Shown here in pieces: positions 14,412 through 57,889 of a stretch of 64,000 bases of DNA. Made by a program: the position numbers and the translations under genes. The notes below the pieces were generated by a model. That model worked only from the letters and a program-made list of their open reading frames with translations. It did not search any database and was not told the origin of the DNA. Positions within the stretch are counted from its first letter, which is position 1. Each line of letters begins with the position of its first letter. Origin of the DNA: Bacteroidales bacterium UBA4070 (GTDB lineage: Bacteria; Bacteroidota; Bacteroidia; Bacteroidales; VadinHA17); NCBI GenBank assembly GCA_002383485.1, contig DFYY01000013.1:40270-104269 (forward strand). Direction: 5' to 3'.

Positions 14412-17400
14412 ATGAAATATTTATATTTTGTCATATTGGGATTGCTGGTGATCGCACCGGCAACATATGCAGAAGACTACGGTAATGCCGACCAGACGTC
14501 TGCCGTTCAGCCAGCTAACATTACGGTAAAAGGCAGAGTTGTTGATGAAAGCGGAGAACCGCTTCCCGGCGCAACCGTATTGGAAAAAGGTGCTACAAAT
14601 GGTACCAGTACCGGCCTTGACGGGAGTTTCTCTCTTTCTGTTCCTTCAGATGCTACGCTGATAATTTCTTTCGTTGGACATCAAAATATTGAAATAGCTG
14701 TAAGCGGAAGAACTGAGCTGGGGAATATCATATTGGTTTCGGGATTGGAAGAGCTCGAACAGGTTGTAGTAATTGGTTACGGTACTCAGCGCAAGGTTGA
14801 CCTTACAGGCTCTGTTGCGATCGTCAACACTGAAGAGATGAAGAAAGTATCACACTCAAACATCTCAACAATGCTTGAAGGAAAAGTAGCCGGTATCCAG
14901 ATTACAACTGACGGACAACCGGGAGCAGACCCTACAGTACGTATTCGTGGTATCGGTTCGTTCGGCAGCACTGCACCTCTCTACGTTGTTGACGGTGTAC
15001 CCATGGGTACAACAATACGCGACTTCTCGCCAAACGATATCGAATCACTTCAGGTACTAAAGGATGCTTCTGCCGCCGCAATATATGGTTCGCGCGCTGC
15101 CAACGGCGTGGTTATAATCACCACAAAGCAGGGGAAGCATAACGAAGCCATGAAAGTAGACTACAGCGGCTATGTTGGTTTAGACCAGGTGGAGAAGGGG
15201 GTATATGATGTAATGGATGCCTATCAGTATGCTCAGTACGTCACAATGGCATACACTAACAGCGGCATGGATGTTCCTGCCGGATACGATCCTTCAAGCC
15301 CTAATTATCTCGATCCGGATGTAGTTAATACAAATTGGTTCGATGAGGCGTTCAAGACCGGTATTCGTCAGAATCACAACATCAACCTCTCAGGAGGTGG
15401 CGATAACAATACTTACAACATCGCTCTCGACTACTATAGCCAGAAGGGAACAATGGAAGGTGCCGGTCCTAATTTCGACCGTTACACTGCCCGCATCAAC
15501 AATTCGATGGATGTTAAGTTTATCAAATTCAAAACGAATATAGTGTATAGCCACAGTGATCAGGACAATATGGCTCTCAGTAACGCCAGTGAGTATGTAC
15601 AGGGGCTGTGGGGTGCACAATATCCGGTAATGGCTTCGGCTCTGCTTATACCTCCAAGTATAAAGGCTTACGATGAGTCGACCTGGGTTCTCGATGACAA
15701 AATTCCGGCTGCTACGGAATATACCTATGACTCCTTCGGTTATGGTACTTACTATGACGATGTTCACGGAGACTTGCGGGTTACGAATCTGCTCCTCACC
15801 AATAACCTTCTGAAAAGAAATGTCGTTGTTGACCGCATTGTTGCTTCCGGTTCGGCGATTTTTGACCTCATTACATTGGTGGGTCTGAAGAGCAGCAATC
15901 ACAAGTTTGATTACAACCTCAACTTAGCCTACAGCAAGACGATTGCAAAAGACTTTACGTTTGTTCCTGCGTTCATACAGAGTACAACAAACTACCTGTC
16001 AAAGGCAGATGAGACCCTGACGGAGGGCTATCGCAACTACAGCACTGCTCTTATCGAAAACACTTTAACATACGATGGCAAATTCGGACGCAACCACGTC
16101 AATATGGTTGTCGGCCAGACATACGAGCACGAGCTCTTTCATACGGTCAGTGGCAGCGGTGTCAACATGCCTGAACCATACTTTCTGGAATTGCGAAACG
16201 CGGAGGAAACATCATCAACAAGCCCGGAAAACGAGCACAAGCTGGCATCATATATTGGTCGTCTCAACTACGATTTCGACGGGAAATATCTTTTGTCGGT
16301 TACAGCACGTCGTGATGGTTCGAGCCGTCTCTCTTCAGCTGATCGCTGGGATTGGTTTCCGTCTGTATCAGCAGGTTGGCGTATTGATCGCGAAGAATTC
16401 TTTCCCGTTGATGAATCTGTCATCGACCTGCTCAAGATTCGCGCCAGCTATGGGGTACTTGGTAATGAGAACATAGGCGAATACCAGTACATGGATGTCA
16501 TGTCGAGAGGTAATTACACCTATAGCTTCGGAAATAATAAGGTTACAGGCTCTGCAATATCAAATTATGTAAACGAAGCCATCAAGTGGGAAAAGAAGAA
16601 AACGGCTGACGTTGGTCTTGATCTCGGGATGTTCAGCAATCAGCTGGAATTTACATTTGACTGGTATAAGTCAACATCCGAAGACCTTCTTTACAGTGTG
16701 GCAGTGCCGTCCAATGCAGGTGCTACAAACTCAACTGTAACGATGAATGCAGCAACAATGGTAAACTCAGGTCTTGAGTTCCTGGTTGCATACCACAATC
16801 ATCAGCGCGCTTTGAAGTTTGACGTTTCTGCAAACTTATCCACCCTCAGAAACGAGGTGACAAAGCTGGGTGTTTCAAACGAACCTCGTACTGACGGCTA
16901 CTGCCGCACAGAGGTAGGCCGTGAAGTTGGTTCATTCTATGGCTACGTTTACCAGGGTATCTTCCAGTCGCAGACAGAGATAGATAACCGAGTCAACTCA
17001 GAAGGAGAATACATCAATCAGAGCGGTGCGCAACCGGGTGACTGCATATACGCAGACCTTAATCTTGACGGTGAAATTACGAACGAGGACCAAAAATACC
17101 TGGGCAGCGGGATTCCAAAGGTTCATTACGGATTGAATGCACGTGCTGAATGGAACGGGTTTGACCTGAGCATATCGACATTTGGAGCCGCAGGATTCAA
17201 AGCTGTTGATTTTGTTGACGTCACTTTGCACAGCTCATATTTTATACTCAACAAGAATGTTGATCTGTTGGATGCCTGGAGACCGGATAACACTGACACC
17301 GATGTGCCCCGCATAGCATACAAATCTACAGGTTCAATCACCAACGATATGTTCAGCCAGCGTTTCATACAAAATGCATCATATCTGAAGATTGCCAACA

Positions 17401-43791: not shown

Positions 43792-44871
43792 TTATTTTTT
43801 TGCCGGTGAAATCTCCACCTTCAGCACACTGTTGCTGCCGGTGATGATGTTGTCAACGCTGTATGGCATCGGTTCGTCAAGAAACTTTCTGTCAGCGGTA
43901 ACCACTGCCATTCCCCTGGCCGGAACGTTGACTGCTGCCGGTGCCCCATGGGGTCCGCCTGACAGTTTCATCGGTATGTCAGATGTATTGACAAGTTCGA
44001 ACTTAATTATTTTGCCGTCATCCTTAAAAGGTGCTCCTGCTTTTACAACAGATCTGAATAGCGGTGCAGCGATCTCCTCCATTGCAGCCAGGTTATCTCC
44101 GTACCAGACGGCTGTTCTGCAGTCAAACATCGCCTCTTTCAGGGATTCATGGGTGCGTTCCTTTGCAAACACAAGGGTCATGGGCCTGTGCGAGTATTCC
44201 GGAGCAGCAAACTCTTCACTGATGACCCCGTGAACGTCGCTGTTGCCCATCACTGCCAGATTATTGTCGCGGCACATGTCCATCACCAGCGGATAGTATT
44301 CCACATCGTTGTAGTACTCTATACCGTGCAGCCATCCTTTGGCTATAAGCTCGCGGTGAACATCATACATTCTTGGTATGCCGTCAGGCTGCTGACTCTT
44401 CCATCCAGGGTGGTTCCACTGTATGAAGGCGCCCTGTGCAATGGCTGCTTCGATGACCTTCATGAAATCTTCCTTAACCAGTGAATCCGGCTCGGTGATG
44501 AATAGGGCATTGAGGTGGCCGGGAGGCATCTTGCGTGTTATTTCGGATCCCTTTACAAGGATGATGTTGTAGTCGGCCGCGGTGTTACGTGCAATTTTCC
44601 AGGCGGCGCTGTAGTCTATTGGCACATACTGTTTATGCGGCTGGTATTCAATGTGATCAGTAATGGAGATGGCATCAAGGCCATCGCGCCATGCCTCGCC
44701 GATCCTTTGTGTTGGCCACACGTTGCCGTCTGAGAAGACGGTGTGTGTATGGAAGTCACATTTAAGGGTCACGTAACCGGGCAGTTCGGGCACATTCAGC
44801 ATGTGCCGCTGTGCCGAGATTGCCATTGTGCCCAGGAGGAGGGCGGTGATGAGGAGAAGTCTTGTTTTCAT
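43792..44871 (-). CDS. Secreted PHP-domain phosphoesterase-like protein
   Basis: Likely start MKTRLL at 44871; CDFHTHTVFSDG, ITDH, NHP, NSDVH metal-binding motifs. Confidence 0.85.
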   Translation of the reverse strand: MKTRLLLITALLLGTMAISAQRHMLNVPELPGYVTLKCDFHTHTVFSDGNVWPTQRIGEAWRDGLDAISITDHIEYQPHKQYVPIDYSAAWKIARNTAADYNIILVKGSEITRKMPPGHLNALFITEPDSLVKEDFMKVIEAAIAQGAFIQWNHPGWKSQQPDGIPRMYDVHRELIAKGWLHGIEYYNDVEYYPLVMDMCRDNNLAVMGNSDVHGVISEEFAAPEYSHRPMTLVFAKERTHESLKEAMFDCRTAVWYGDNLAAMEEIAAPLFRSVVKAGAPFKDDGKIIKFELVNTSDIPMKLSGGPHGAPAAVNVPARGMAVVTADRKFLDEPMPYSVDNIITGSNSVLKVEISPAKK

Positions 44872-44879
44872 ATCAGAGA

Positions 44880-44937
44880 ATTTACGATTTACGATTTTCG
44901 ATTGTAGATTTATTCGCAATTCAAACATCGCAAATCC
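44880..44937. repeat. Self-complementary pair of heptamer arrays filling the MFS-PHP intergenic gap
   Basis: ATTTACG ATTTACG ATTTTCG ATTGTAG then TATTCGC AATTCAA ACATCGC AAATCC. Confidence 0.75.
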
Positions 44938-46386
44938 CTATTGCCTATTGCCTGTATTATTTCCTGCCGCATCCCTGCCCCTCAGGATTAATCTGTCGTA
45001 CAGATACAGCAGTATGCTGGCTGCAACGGCTATTGCCGTGAAGAGCACCCACACCTTTGAAGGGTTGTATGTATCCCAGAGATAGCGGGTCAGTTCCTGT
45101 GCATTCATCCCGAAGAGCTCCTGCGCCATGTTGAAATAGTCGGTCTGTGTAAAACTGTCCGAAATAGCTGGTATGTCAAATCCTTTTTCTGCGACTGCCT
45201 GTTTCAGCAGGTAGAGCTTGTCAGCCATCTTTTCGTACGGTCTGCCTGAGATCCATCCGGCCCCAATGTGTCCGAGCGCTATGGGCAGGAATGCGGTTCC
45301 CATGTACAATGCCTTGCGGTCAGCGGGAGCAATGCCTCCCAGATATTCCTGCACCTTGGGTGATGAAGCCATCTCGCCGATGCCAAAGATCAGCACGCCA
45401 AGCACAATTATCCACGGATTGAGATTGGCGAACATCATTCCCAGCCCGAAGGCAAGGATAAAAATCCCGGTCATGATGCTGTTAAGCGGCTTGACCCTGG
45501 CGGTTATGGATGAGATAATAAGCTGAAACAGAATAATGAAGAACGAGGCCAGGCTCGATATGGTGACTGTGGTTATAGTTCCCGGGTCAAGTCCCAGTGA
45601 TGCTGACATCCCGTCGAGGTTCACCCATGACTCGAGGAAGACGGGGAAAGAGTAATATAGCTGGTTATATGCTGTCCAGAATACGCCAATGATGAGCAGG
45701 AACAGCAGGAACCTCCAGTCGGTGAGTGTCACCCCGATATTTCTGAAAGCGATCCCGATATTCTTCAGAAAGCCCTGTCCGTTGTCGGTCACAGCCGGTT
45801 CCTTGTAGAAGAAGAGGGTTATGATGAGGTTAAGGGCCATGGCGGCGATAGACATATAAAAGACAATATCCCAGCTCTCCTTGTAGAGCAGGCTGGCTAC
45901 AAACGGGCCGATGAAGCCGCCGATATTGACCACCATGTAAAAGATGCCGAATCCGAGGGATGCTGTCTCTCTGTTTGTCACCCGGGCAACGGTGCCTGAG
46001 ATAAGGGGCTTGAAGAGCGCTCCGGCCACTGCCAGTAATATGAATGCTGCGAAGATCGAGCCGAAGGTCTCGAACCTGCCAAGCATGAAGAATGACAGTA
46101 TATAGGTCAGGAATGAAACAATAAGGACCTTTTTGTAGCCCACCCTGTCAGCTATGGCTCCGGTTATTACGGGGAGGAAATAGAGTATCATTGACGCCGT
46201 GCCCATTATGGTTCCCTTCTCCACGTTTGTAAAGCCAAGGGCTCCATCCTCCTTTGGAGAGGTGAGGTAGAGGGCTATGAAACCATTGTAAAAGGCATAC
46301 CATCCCCAGCGTTCGAACAGTTCAATCAGGTTGGAGATCCAGAATAGCCTGGGAAATTTCTTGAGTGTCTGGGCAAAGCTGCTCAT
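44938..46386 (-). CDS. MFS transporter, POT/PTR peptide-transporter-like
   Basis: IELFERWGWY (ExxERxxxY-like), GAIADRVG, GALFKP, FYMVVNIGG motifs; many TM segments. Confidence 0.88.
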   Translation of the reverse strand: MSSFAQTLKKFPRLFWISNLIELFERWGWYAFYNGFIALYLTSPKEDGALGFTNVEKGTIMGTASMILYFLPVITGAIADRVGYKKVLIVSFLTYILSFFMLGRFETFGSIFAAFILLAVAGALFKPLISGTVARVTNRETASLGFGIFYMVVNIGGFIGPFVASLLYKESWDIVFYMSIAAMALNLIITLFFYKEPAVTDNGQGFLKNIGIAFRNIGVTLTDWRFLLFLLIIGVFWTAYNQLYYSFPVFLESWVNLDGMSASLGLDPGTITTVTISSLASFFIILFQLIISSITARVKPLNSIMTGIFILAFGLGMMFANLNPWIIVLGVLIFGIGEMASSPKVQEYLGGIAPADRKALYMGTAFLPIALGHIGAGWISGRPYEKMADKLYLLKQAVAEKGFDIPAISDSFTQTDYFNMAQELFGMNAQELTRYLWDTYNPSKVWVLFTAIAVAASILLYLYDRLILRGRDAAGNNTGNRQ

Positions 46387-56543: not shown

Positions 56544-57361
56544 GAAAGAAAGCGAACAGATTCGTTCTGTCAACTGTCATCTGGTTACTTGCAGCCTTTG
56601 TTATACAGGCTCAGCCCCTGCTGCCAAGGCCAGAGCCGCCACGGCTGGTCAATGACCTGGCTGGGGTGCTGTCTGCGGGAGAAGTGCAGGCTCTTGAAAA
56701 TAAGCTCGTTGCTTTCAATGATTCCACATCCAATCAGATTGCCGTCGTTATAGTAAGCGACCTTCAGGGTTATGACCGCTCTGATTTTGCATACAGGGTA
56801 GCGCGCGACTGGGGAGTTGGGCAGGGTGATTTCAACAACGGATTGCTGGTACTTGTCAGGCCAAAAACAACCGATACAAACGGACAGGTGTTCATTGCCA
56901 CAGGCTACGGCCTTGAGGGTGCTATTCCTGATATTGCATGTGCTGAAATCATTGACAGGGAGATCATTCCGAGATTCAGGGAGAATGATTACTACGGAGG
57001 TATTGATGCCGGTACCAATGTGCTGATGGCTCTGGCAGCCGGTGAATACAGCTATGACAACTACGCGGGAGGGAGTTCATCGGGTGCAATACCGGGAGTG
57101 GTCATCTTCCTGATAATACTCTTCTTTATCTTCATCATCTCTGCCGGCAGCTCCAACAACAAGCATCTGAGGCGTACCGGATCATCCAACCTGCCACTGT
57201 GGCTCCTTATGGGCATGCTGGGCGGTGGCCGGTCGCACACTGGCAGCTGGGGAGGATTCTCCGGCGGCAGCGGTGGCGGCGGTTTCAGTGGCGGCGGAGG
57301 TGGCTTCGGTGGTTTCGGAGGCGGCGGCTTTGGCGGCGGCGGAGCAGGGGGAAGCTGGTAG
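56540..57361 (+). CDS. TPM-domain membrane protein (YgcG-like) with Gly-rich tail
   Basis: VNDLAGVLS, WGVG..DFNNGLLVLV, IATGYGLEG, GGGFGGGGAGGSW. Confidence 0.92.
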   Translation: MRKKANRFVLSTVIWLLAAFVIQAQPLLPRPEPPRLVNDLAGVLSAGEVQALENKLVAFNDSTSNQIAVVIVSDLQGYDRSDFAYRVARDWGVGQGDFNNGLLVLVRPKTTDTNGQVFIATGYGLEGAIPDIACAEIIDREIIPRFRENDYYGGIDAGTNVLMALAAGEYSYDNYAGGSSSGAIPGVVIFLIILFFIFIISAGSSNNKHLRRTGSSNLPLWLLMGMLGGGRSHTGSWGGFSGGSGGGGFSGGGGGFGGFGGGGFGGGGAGGSW

Positions 57362-57396
57362 ATTTGCGATTGGCGAATTGCGATTTTCGATTTAGG
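57362..57396 (+). repeat. Left heptamer array
   Basis: ATTTGCG ATTGGCG AATTGCG ATTTTCG ATTTAGG starting right after the TPM stop codon. Confidence 0.8.
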
Positions 57397-57457
57397 TTTT
57401 TTTGAATTTCAGATTGTTTTGGATTAACTTTCAGTTTCCTAATCAGGTGGAATAATT

Positions 57458-57829
57458 ATGGGACTGAAGGAAAAAATGCAGCTTCGTACCAGGAATCATG
57501 CTCTGGAAGTAATATCGTTATGTAATCAGTTATCTCGCAACACACAAAATCAGATTATCAGTAAGCAACTCCTTAGAGCCTCCTGCTCCGTTGGGGCGAA
57601 TTACAGGGCAGTTGCAAGGGCTAAATCGACCGCTGACTTTATCAACAAACTGTATGTTGTTGAAGAAGAAGCTGACGAGGCACTCTTCTGGCTTGAATTA
57701 TTGCTGGAGCTTGAGCCCGTATTCAAGGATAAGATTCTTGCCTGCAGCTCAGAAATGAACGAAATATTATCAATAGTCGTTACCTCAAGGAAGACGGCCA
57801 GGAAGAATCTGAATAACTTCTCTAATTAA
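57458..57829 (+). CDS. Four-helix-bundle protein (TIGR02436 / 23S rRNA-IVS / Avd-like family)
   Basis: KQLLRASCSVGANYRA, RAKSTADFINKL, EEEADEALFWLELL motif pattern; 123 aa. Confidence 0.9.
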   Translation: MGLKEKMQLRTRNHALEVISLCNQLSRNTQNQIISKQLLRASCSVGANYRAVARAKSTADFINKLYVVEEEADEALFWLELLLELEPVFKDKILACSSEMNEILSIVVTSRKTARKNLNNFSN

Positions 57830-57854
57830 GCCTGCCCACCACTCCTCATTTCTT

Positions 57855-57889
57855 AATTCGCAACTCGCAACTCGCAACTCGCAACTCCC
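57855..57889 (-). repeat. Right heptamer array, inverted relative to the left array
   Basis: AATTCGC AACTCGC AACTCGC AACTCGC AACTCCC, abutting the rluD stop codon. Confidence 0.9.

Follow-up and report, generated by a model that had tools for sequence, protein, structure and literature searches.

According to the parts of Mrazek et al (2007) relayed in PMC4679880 and PMC4692102, heptanucleotide tandem repeats are the most abundant class of long simple sequence repeats in many genomes and are mostly intergenic, with a function that is described as obscure and with slippage proposed for them. Heptameric intergenic repeats, GGGAATC in Xanthomonas and GGGGAYT in Nostoc, were described by Rehm et al (2015; PMC4692102) at about 180 loci per genome, typically with about four units each and with 70–75 close convergent pairs, and were found to lie on the sense strand within 50 bp after a stop codon or antisense within 50 bp before an open reading frame (ORF), to occur less often than expected within coding DNA and between ORFs that diverge, and to be transcribed. 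In Nostoc PCC 7120, the word ATTGCGAATTG has been counted 79 times, with an occurrence inside the hyp operon (PMC2408588), and TAACTGA direct repeats have been reported in Beggiatoaceae, cyanobacteria and a few Bacteroidetes (MacGregor, 2015; PMC4679880). Here, we analyzed a stretch of 64,000 nucleotides from Bacteroidales bacterium UBA4070 (hereafter the window; C53:40270-104269 of genome G000, whose assembly comprises 3.43 Mb in 56 contigs), and focused on a heptamer hairpin that occupies the junction of an MFS transporter gene and a PHP-type metallohydrolase gene on the minus strand (44869-44953). The junction hairpin carries no gene and is a somewhat decayed member of a heptamer-array family anchored to stop codons. 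We assign a probability of roughly 0.6 to the reading that it represents one locus of a dispersed family of stop-anchored, intergenic heptanucleotide tandem arrays with the unit A(G/A/T)TTGCG, which does not depend on the four-helix-bundle gene (TIGR02436/PF05635) found between similar arms elsewhere in the window.

On the minus strand, the junction reads TAG GG ATTTGCG ATGTTTG AATTGCG AATAAATCTACAAT CGAAAAT CGTAAAT CGTAAAT TCTCTGAT ATG, and is made up of the following features together with the two genes that it separates.

44938..46386, minus strand: MFS transporter gene, 482 aa (ORF list; NCBIfam MFS matches all under the curated cut-offs).
44937..44953, minus strand: second heptamer array, (GGCAATA)x2, which encodes ...GNRQ* and provides the TAG stop (Tandem Repeats Finder, period 7, 100% matches).
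44915..44935, minus strand: 5' (G-strand) arm, ATTTGCG ATGTTTG AATTGCG (sequence; relaxed genome scan, C53:85184-85204).
44901..44914, minus strand: asymmetric 14-nt loop, AATAAATCTACAAT in mRNA sense, whose orientation marks the flip of the hairpin relative to relatives (sequence).
44880..44900, plus strand: 3' arm, ATTTACG ATTTACG ATTTTCG, in mRNA CGAAAAU CGUAAAU CGUAAAU (strict array scan; Tandem Repeats Finder, 44880-44912).
44869..44879, minus strand: 8-nt leader TCTCTGAT and ATG of the PHP gene (sequence; start codon aligned across 19 relatives).
43792..44871, minus strand: PHP/CehA-type metallohydrolase gene, 359 aa from the ATG, downstream of the MFS gene (NCBIfam matches under the curated cut-offs; synteny with the MFS gene in 20 relatives of the genus).

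The spacer between the two genes is 66 nt long and is filled by the palindrome, which starts 2 nt after the MFS stop codon and ends 8 nt before the PHP start codon. The 5' arm consists of three units of the A(G/A/T)TTGCG type, and the hairpin at 44880-44935 is regarded as a decayed copy because the middle one, ATGTTTG, is degenerate. The 3' end of the MFS gene reads ...ACA GGC AAT AGG CAA TAG in mRNA sense, followed by GG and the heptamer arm, so that the stop codon (TAG at 44938-44940) and the last codons lie inside the array of the second word, GGCAATA. The only period-7 arrays that Tandem Repeats Finder detected in the window were those at 44880-44912, 44937-44953, 57361-57393 and 57858-57887.

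The junction word belongs to an abundant genome-wide family. In a strict scan, which called an array where at least three phased units each differed by at most one mismatch from A[G/A/T]TTGCG, G000 gave 78 arrays and its third-order Markov shuffle 0, and a relaxed scan gave 101 arms at 78 loci compared with 8 arms in the shuffle. Period 7 was the commonest tandem period of the genome, with 37 arrays at a score of at least 40, compared with 10 arrays for the next commonest period. Loci with two arms of opposite orientation were inward-facing in 16 cases, including the MFS-PHP locus, and outward-facing in none (relaxed scan). Furthermore, the outer end of the arm was located -8 to +12 nt from the stop codon of an ORF of at least 100 codons reading into the arm in 55 of the 101 arms (54%), compared with 4.9% expected for random intergenic positions, whereas only nine arms abutted a stop codon in the opposite sense; the enrichment after stop codons, on which a preliminary description of the window had staked its proposal, was thus borne out. 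The stop codon at these arm junctions was TAG in 47%, compared with 20% genome-wide. The arms themselves were variable in unit number.

The distribution of the loci among the gaps between genes was uneven, 29 of 324 convergent, 33 of 1476 tandem and 5 of 362 divergent gaps holding loci, or 0.56, 0.18 and 0.056 loci per kb of gap, respectively, which is an approximately 10-fold difference between convergent and divergent gaps; because the genome-wide gene calls simply took the longest ORFs of at least 100 aa, a crude set that misses small genes, the classes "divergent" and "not adjacent" are inflated. Only 5 of the 78 loci fell inside predicted genes, and arms within 20 nt upstream of a start codon were C-strand arms in 11 and a G-strand arm in 1 of the 101 cases. 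Within the order, the A(G/A/T)TTGCG family was confined almost entirely to the genus of uncultured Bacteroidales to which G000 belongs. A pattern scan with one genome per species also found runs of at least four TTGCGAN units in Nostocales, Acidobacteriota, Planctomycetota, Verrucomicrobiota, Chloroflexota, candidate-phyla bacteria and some Gammaproteobacteria, and 20 of the 117 arrays in this cross-phylum sample abutted the stop codon of a long ORF.

These counts bear on whether the junction is merely an AT-rich spacer in which some similar 7-mers and a hairpin of low stability occur by chance. The folding energy of the hairpin, which falls within the range of shuffled sequences, and the degenerate middle unit of one arm would fit such a chance resemblance. 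Nevertheless, both arms were recovered by a genome scan that gave 0–8 matches in shuffled genomes, their position and polarity obey the rule of the family, and the orthologous spacers of three relatives (G022, G006 and G005) hold longer versions of the same arrays, so that chance is scarcely credible as an explanation. It is the membership in the family rather than the fold energy that lifts the junction element above chance, given the 78 arrays compared with 0 and the 101 arms compared with 8.

We then compared the orthologous junction among 41 related genomes, in 23 of which, nearly all of the same genus, an orthologue of the PHP gene was present, with the MFS gene upstream in 20. The spacer was 32–209 nt long across these 20 relatives and differed in its repeat words, and this variability among relatives agrees with what the preliminary description had expected. 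TTGCG-type hairpins were present only in the nearest relatives, G022, G006 and G005, as longer array versions; a single C-strand arm was present in G003, G004 and G016, and most orthologous spacers had no hairpin, those of G007, G010 and G024 having no heptamer arm. Other spacers carried different words (GAATTAA, AGACCTTC, GGCAGTA, AGCGTAG and GACCGCAA) or no repeats. The MFS protein was conserved as far as residue 457, beyond which the tail and the stop codon varied and were often written by GGCAGTAG or GGCAATAG units, and a word of the GGCAATA type also ended the MFS gene in several relatives. The variety of repeat words and spacer lengths indicates that this junction always accepts repeats, the content of which turns over fast.

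As judged from sequence alignment, the entire hairpin of G000 is inverted relative to those of its three close relatives. When the reverse complement of the G000 hairpin was aligned with the sense spacers of G022, G006 and G005, the scores were 62, 72 and 54, respectively, whereas the hairpin in sense orientation scored 34, 38 and 36. The asymmetric loop is part of the 20-nt word GATTTTCGATTGTAGATTTA, which is antisense in G000 but sense in both G022 and G006, so that an exact 20-nt word is common to the three genomes only when the hairpin is inverted, and the inverted match in G005 is the 13-nt GATTTTCGATTGT. A comparable event was found at the cassette between a TPM-domain gene and an RluD-type gene, described below, where the four-helix-bundle gene is flipped in G003 compared with G000, G022 and G017. 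The two cases together argue that inversion between inverted arms is recurrent.

Two further observations were made at this junction in relatives. In the MFS tail of G019 (L008), a run of N, representing an assembly gap or a masked stretch, lies inside a long GGCAG(C/T)A array that prolongs the MFS frame, and at this tail arrays of the GGCAG(C/T)A type are seen to break assemblies and to lengthen C-terminal tails. The PHP orthologue is broken in two relatives, by internal stop codons in G012:C24 (L023/L024/L026) and by a split into two frames in G001:C3 (L020/L025), which indicates that the PHP gene is dispensable in parts of the genus.

At the RNA level, a promoter of the Bacteroidetes type (TAnnTTTG) was not found in or before the spacer, and a scan for terminator-like sites found none in 44872-44937. 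The hairpin stem is AT-rich and is followed by AAAUUCUCUGAU, which differs from the GC-rich stem and U-tract of an intrinsic terminator. Because the spacer has neither a promoter nor a terminator, the MFS and PHP genes are likely to be co-transcribed, and the palindrome is presumably transcribed as an inter-cistronic stem-loop. Elsewhere in G000, canonical terminators with a GC stem and a T-tract were found between or beside heptamer arms at C9:5417-5556, C34:107488, C6:29832 and C7:10050, which suggests that the arms themselves do not substitute for intrinsic terminators. A scan of 44000-46000 with the Rfam covariance models gave no match overlapping 44872-44940, even at an E-value of 10 or lower. 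The predicted RNA fold of the junction had an energy of -15.7 kcal/mol with about 21 pairs, and, in agreement with the claim that the two arms form an imperfect hairpin filling the gap, was imperfect, with a closing stem of 10 consecutive pairs (9 in the preliminary description).

It could be supposed that the hairpin is a selected RNA element of an MFS-PHP operon, that is, a site for RNase III or a decay barrier that uncouples the stability of the two cistrons and/or a translational coupler, in which the ribosome terminating 2 nt upstream would melt the 5' arm and free the A/C-rich 3' arm as an unstructured leader of the PHP gene. Consistent with this, the element fills the spacer exactly between the MFS stop and the PHP leader, a promoter and a canonical terminator are absent in and before the spacer, C-strand arms are modestly enriched and G-strand arms depleted just before start codons, the heptamer repeats of Xanthomonas are mostly transcribed (PMC4692102), and the fold at the G000 junction is about 4 kcal/mol better in sense than in antisense (-15.4 to -15.7 compared with -11.5 kcal/mol). 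However, the fold was unremarkable when compared with shuffles (z -1.62; 12 of 200 shuffles folded equally well), and in G022, G006 and G005 it is the antisense strand that folds better, so that the sense-strand advantage in G000 does not count as evidence for selection of the sense-strand RNA through G-U pairs. Co-evolution of the arms was rejected, as cognate arms (-0.668 kcal/mol per nt) were matched no better than chimeric arms (-0.799 kcal/mol per nt). Moreover, the hairpin is missing from most orthologous spacers, as in G003 and G004, with one arm, and in G007, G010 and G024, with none, and family members are found most in convergent gaps, in which a downstream cistron is lacking. Taken together, these indirect tests (the weak fold, the absence from most orthologous spacers, the strand inconsistency and the chimeric arms) do not favour a selected structure, and we regard a selected RNA element as rather unlikely.

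The relation to the four-helix-bundle gene was evaluated at the cassette between the TPM-domain and RluD-type genes, which consists of the following features.

57362..57389, plus strand: left cassette arm (G-strand), 0 nt past the stop codon of the TPM-domain gene (sequence; strict scan).
57458..57829, plus strand: the sole TIGR02436 four-helix-bundle gene of G000, located between the two arms (profile matches).
57859..57886, minus strand: right cassette arm, (AGTTGCG)x4, 3 nt past the stop codon of the RluD-type gene (strict scan; Tandem Repeats Finder).

The 3' end of the TPM-domain gene, just before its stop codon and the arm, encodes a low-complexity tail rich in glycine (57262-57322; GGGFGG repeats with tandem periods 9 and 15). 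The junction hairpin shares its heptamer word and its layout of two inward-facing arms with this cassette (57362-57886), and the preliminary description was right in taking it as a gene-less member of the repeat family that brackets the TIGR02436 gene. Its more specific statements also held: the 24-mer after the MFS stop, ATTTGCGATGTTTGAATTGCGAAT, is identical at 19 of 24 positions to the array after the TPM stop (57362-57385); the inverted arm is identical on the plus strand over the 12-mer CGATTTTCGATT (44892-44903 and 57381-57392); and the post-stop arrays in the window begin 0, 2 and 3 nt after TAG, TAG and TGA, respectively, within the range of 0–3 nt that had been noted.

The preliminary description had gone on to propose a non-autonomous, "empty" partner of the cassette. 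In such a relationship, the TIGR02436 protein would recognise the heptamer arrays and maintain, spread or exchange them in trans, as RAYT (the transposase associated with repetitive extragenic palindromes, REP) does for REP/REPIN elements, and the junction hairpin would be a dependant of the gene or the scar of a lost cassette. The shared word and inward-facing arms and the flip of the gene between its arms in G003 relative to G000, G022 and G017 speak for this proposal. It did not stand, however, when copy numbers were compared, the criterion that the preliminary description itself had set. G000 has 78 array loci but one TIGR02436/PF05635 gene, and TIGR02436 pseudogene remnants were not found elsewhere in this genome. 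Across 25 genomes of the genus, the number of TTGCG pattern matches ranged from 0 to 153 and that of four-helix-bundle genes from 0 to 6, with no correlation between the array and TIGR02436 counts (rho -0.15, p 0.48). G009, which is 98% complete, has 24 array matches without a TIGR02436 or PF05635 match, and, conversely, G033 and G029 have 12 and 10 four-helix-bundle genes without TTGCG arrays. At the MFS-PHP junction itself, a TIGR02436/PF05635 ORF or fragment of it between the arms was found neither in G000 nor in any of the 20 relatives. Thus, the number of arrays is independent of the number of four-helix-bundle genes. The gene is best read as a lodger in such hairpins, which greatly outnumber it and can occur in its absence, and dependence of the junction hairpin on the TIGR02436 protein is, in our judgment, unlikely.

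Another candidate for mobilisation in trans is the Y1 transposase, since the hairpin is a multi-copy intergenic imperfect palindrome at gene 3' ends, as are REP/REPIN elements, and G000 encodes one RAYT-like transposase of this type (PF01797; C20:14835-15326). Downstream of the Y1 gene, however, to about position 15600, lies a separate repeat family with a TTACAATTC / GAATTGTAA head beside a short GC hairpin, which is not made of heptamer arrays. The TTACAATTC-type heads numbered 185 genome-wide compared with 53 for a reversed-motif control, and the Y1 gene and these repeats probably constitute a REP/RAYT system. Furthermore, heptamer arms vary in unit number, whereas REPs are of fixed length. 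An identity of the heptamer arrays with REP/RAYT elements was therefore rejected, the sole Y1 transposase being tied to the other repeat family, and mobilisation of the junction hairpin by this transposase is very improbable. One TTACAATTC-type head is present in the window at about 27021 (plus strand), and such a head lies within 200 nt of 21 of the 78 heptamer loci, often between both heptamer arms.

The second word was also dispersed in G000. GGCA(A/G)TA formed 19 arrays and carries TAG in every frame, and 11 genes, including the MFS gene, end in AGGCAATAG, with the stop codon provided by a GGCA(A/G)TA array. Most of these arrays are closed by the boundary TAGTG.

For the preferred reading, a dispersed and stop-anchored tandem-array family, the following course of events may be envisaged. 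The basic module is the stop-anchored arm, whose G/T-rich strand begins 0–5 nt past a stop codon and runs outward from the gene. An imperfect palindrome arises from the meeting of two such arms, or from an arm with its inverse behind it and upstream of the next start codon. The arrays would change by replication slippage, and the hairpin could be flipped by recombination or template switching between its inverted arms, whereas the spread to about 80 loci would need some process that copies arrays from locus to locus or a sequence-specific constraint common to the loci. The RNA stem-loop at the junction might have at most a modest effect, as a barrier to 3' decay or as a site for a double-strand RNase between the cistrons, and would not be a selected, precisely paired structure. 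The four-helix-bundle cassette would then be a hairpin of the same kind with a gene lodged in its loop, and not the parent of the junction copy.

Several points weigh against this reading. Most of 20 TIGR02436 genes sampled from the order were located between inverted arrays of short, mostly 7-nt, words, and in G039, which belongs to another family, the only TTGCG arrays flank a four-helix-bundle gene. From the genes inside inverted arrays and the G039 case, it follows that some link between gene and arrays exists, and both findings are to the credit of a dependence on the TIGR02436 protein, as is the occurrence of TTGCGAG arrays abutting such genes even in Pseudoalteromonas and Verrucomicrobia. 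Slippage alone cannot account for one 7-mer at about 80 loci in G000 and at 0–153 pattern matches in congeners, nor for the recurrence of a TTGCGA-type word in many phyla, which implies a dispersal mechanism or a sequence-specific reader. The adjacency to stop codons at 0–5 nt and the excess of TAG (47% compared with 20%) are also unaccounted for by the model; they may have their source in a deletion bias beside a self-renewing array or in stop-containing leader units.

The nature of the gene-array link can be narrowed to some extent. Each sampled TIGR02436 junction had its own repeat word, and the protein tree agreed with the junctions and not with the words. In G039, where GGTTGCG arrays flank the gene, the protein was at most 37% identical to any other sampled four-helix-bundle protein. 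This argues that the arms did not travel with the gene, and their common transfer between G039 and G000 was rejected, the proteins being unrelated beyond the family level. In the cross-phylum sample, a four-helix-bundle gene adjoined 6 of 80 loci, which is a lower bound because the local hidden Markov model used was built from Bacteroidales sequences only and is probably insensitive. In a search of the literature, no paper was found that connects TIGR02436/PF05635 with heptamers. It is conceivable that a single system extends across phyla, in which a PF05635/TIGR02436 protein reads its cognate 7-nt word and drives the creation, spread or inversion of arrays, with the gene-less hairpins as non-autonomous copies that persist for a while after loss of the gene; we consider this distinctly unlikely. 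Apart from these counts, G039:C118:5850-6950 (L027) shows a four-helix-bundle gene flanked by nested arrays of (G/A)GTTGCG and AAACCCG, and arrays of about 4 to 18 units abut or overlap four-helix-bundle genes in Pseudoalteromonas (L107 and L113; AGTTGCG), in Verrucomicrobia (L088) and in Udaeobacter (L069; ATTTGCG in both of the latter).

The present analysis is of interest because heptanucleotide repeats are abundant as long simple sequence repeats in many bacteria, although their origin and role are unexplained. As a small and clean test case in Bacteroidales, the locus has the advantages that a G-quadruplex is impossible with its word, so that the explanation given for Xanthomonas falls away, that the anchoring to stop codons is very tight, and that close relatives document both the gain and loss of units and the flip of a whole hairpin at one conserved gene junction. 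That gene-less hairpins do not require a resident four-helix-bundle gene narrows a popular idea. For annotation, C-terminal tails and stop codons beside such arrays come from the repeats and are unstable, and array-bearing spacers are hot spots of assembly gaps and rearrangements.

Among known systems, the repeats of Rehm et al come closest and are matched by the G000 family in four respects, namely tandem 7-nt units, convergent pairs, polarity with regard to stop and start codons, and avoidance of coding DNA and divergent gaps, all of which were found in G000. The G000 family differs in that its unit has no G-run: runs of at least three G in successive units are absent from ATTTGCG, AATTGCG and AGTTGCG, which do not conform to the G-quadruplex type of heptamer (GGGNATC), and the G-quadruplex reading proposed for the repeats of Xanthomonas and Nostoc cannot apply to it for this reason. 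Its stop anchoring, at 0–5 nt, is also much tighter and its host is a Bacteroidales genus; the flip of a hairpin between relatives and the four-helix-bundle gene in one loop, shown here, have not been described for the Rehm repeats. The class of short tandemly repeated repetitive sequences and long simple sequence repeats is close in its word, as ATTGCGAATTG of Nostoc PCC 7120 is the word of the G000 family; as far as they are relayed in the articles cited above, however, the descriptions of this class cover direct arrays and do not report a paired, stop-anchored, inward-facing layout or turnover between relatives. TAACTGA repeats are similarly dispersed intergenic heptamers with a strict gene polarity, a patchy phylogeny and units that can overlap stop codons, but their arrays are placed for the most part immediately before start codons, contain stops in every frame and form inverted pairs in only 1 of 170 sets (PMC4679880), whereas TTGCGA arrays have no stop in any of the six frames and lie after stop codons.

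ORF-bearing 23S rRNA intervening sequences and TIGR02436 cassettes have long inverted-repeat stems in common with the junction hairpin, which differs from them by its 14-nt loop without an ORF, by its location in an mRNA spacer rather than in rRNA, and by the lack of gene dependence found here. REP/REPIN elements with RAYT are likewise multi-copy extragenic palindromes at gene 3' ends, although the heptamer arms are tandem arrays of variable length and the Y1 transposase is tied to other repeats. By these likenesses, the junction element belongs to a kind already described in Xanthomonas and Nostoc, and what is new here is how tightly it is anchored to stop codons, the flip documented for the hairpin and its independence from the number of four-helix-bundle genes.

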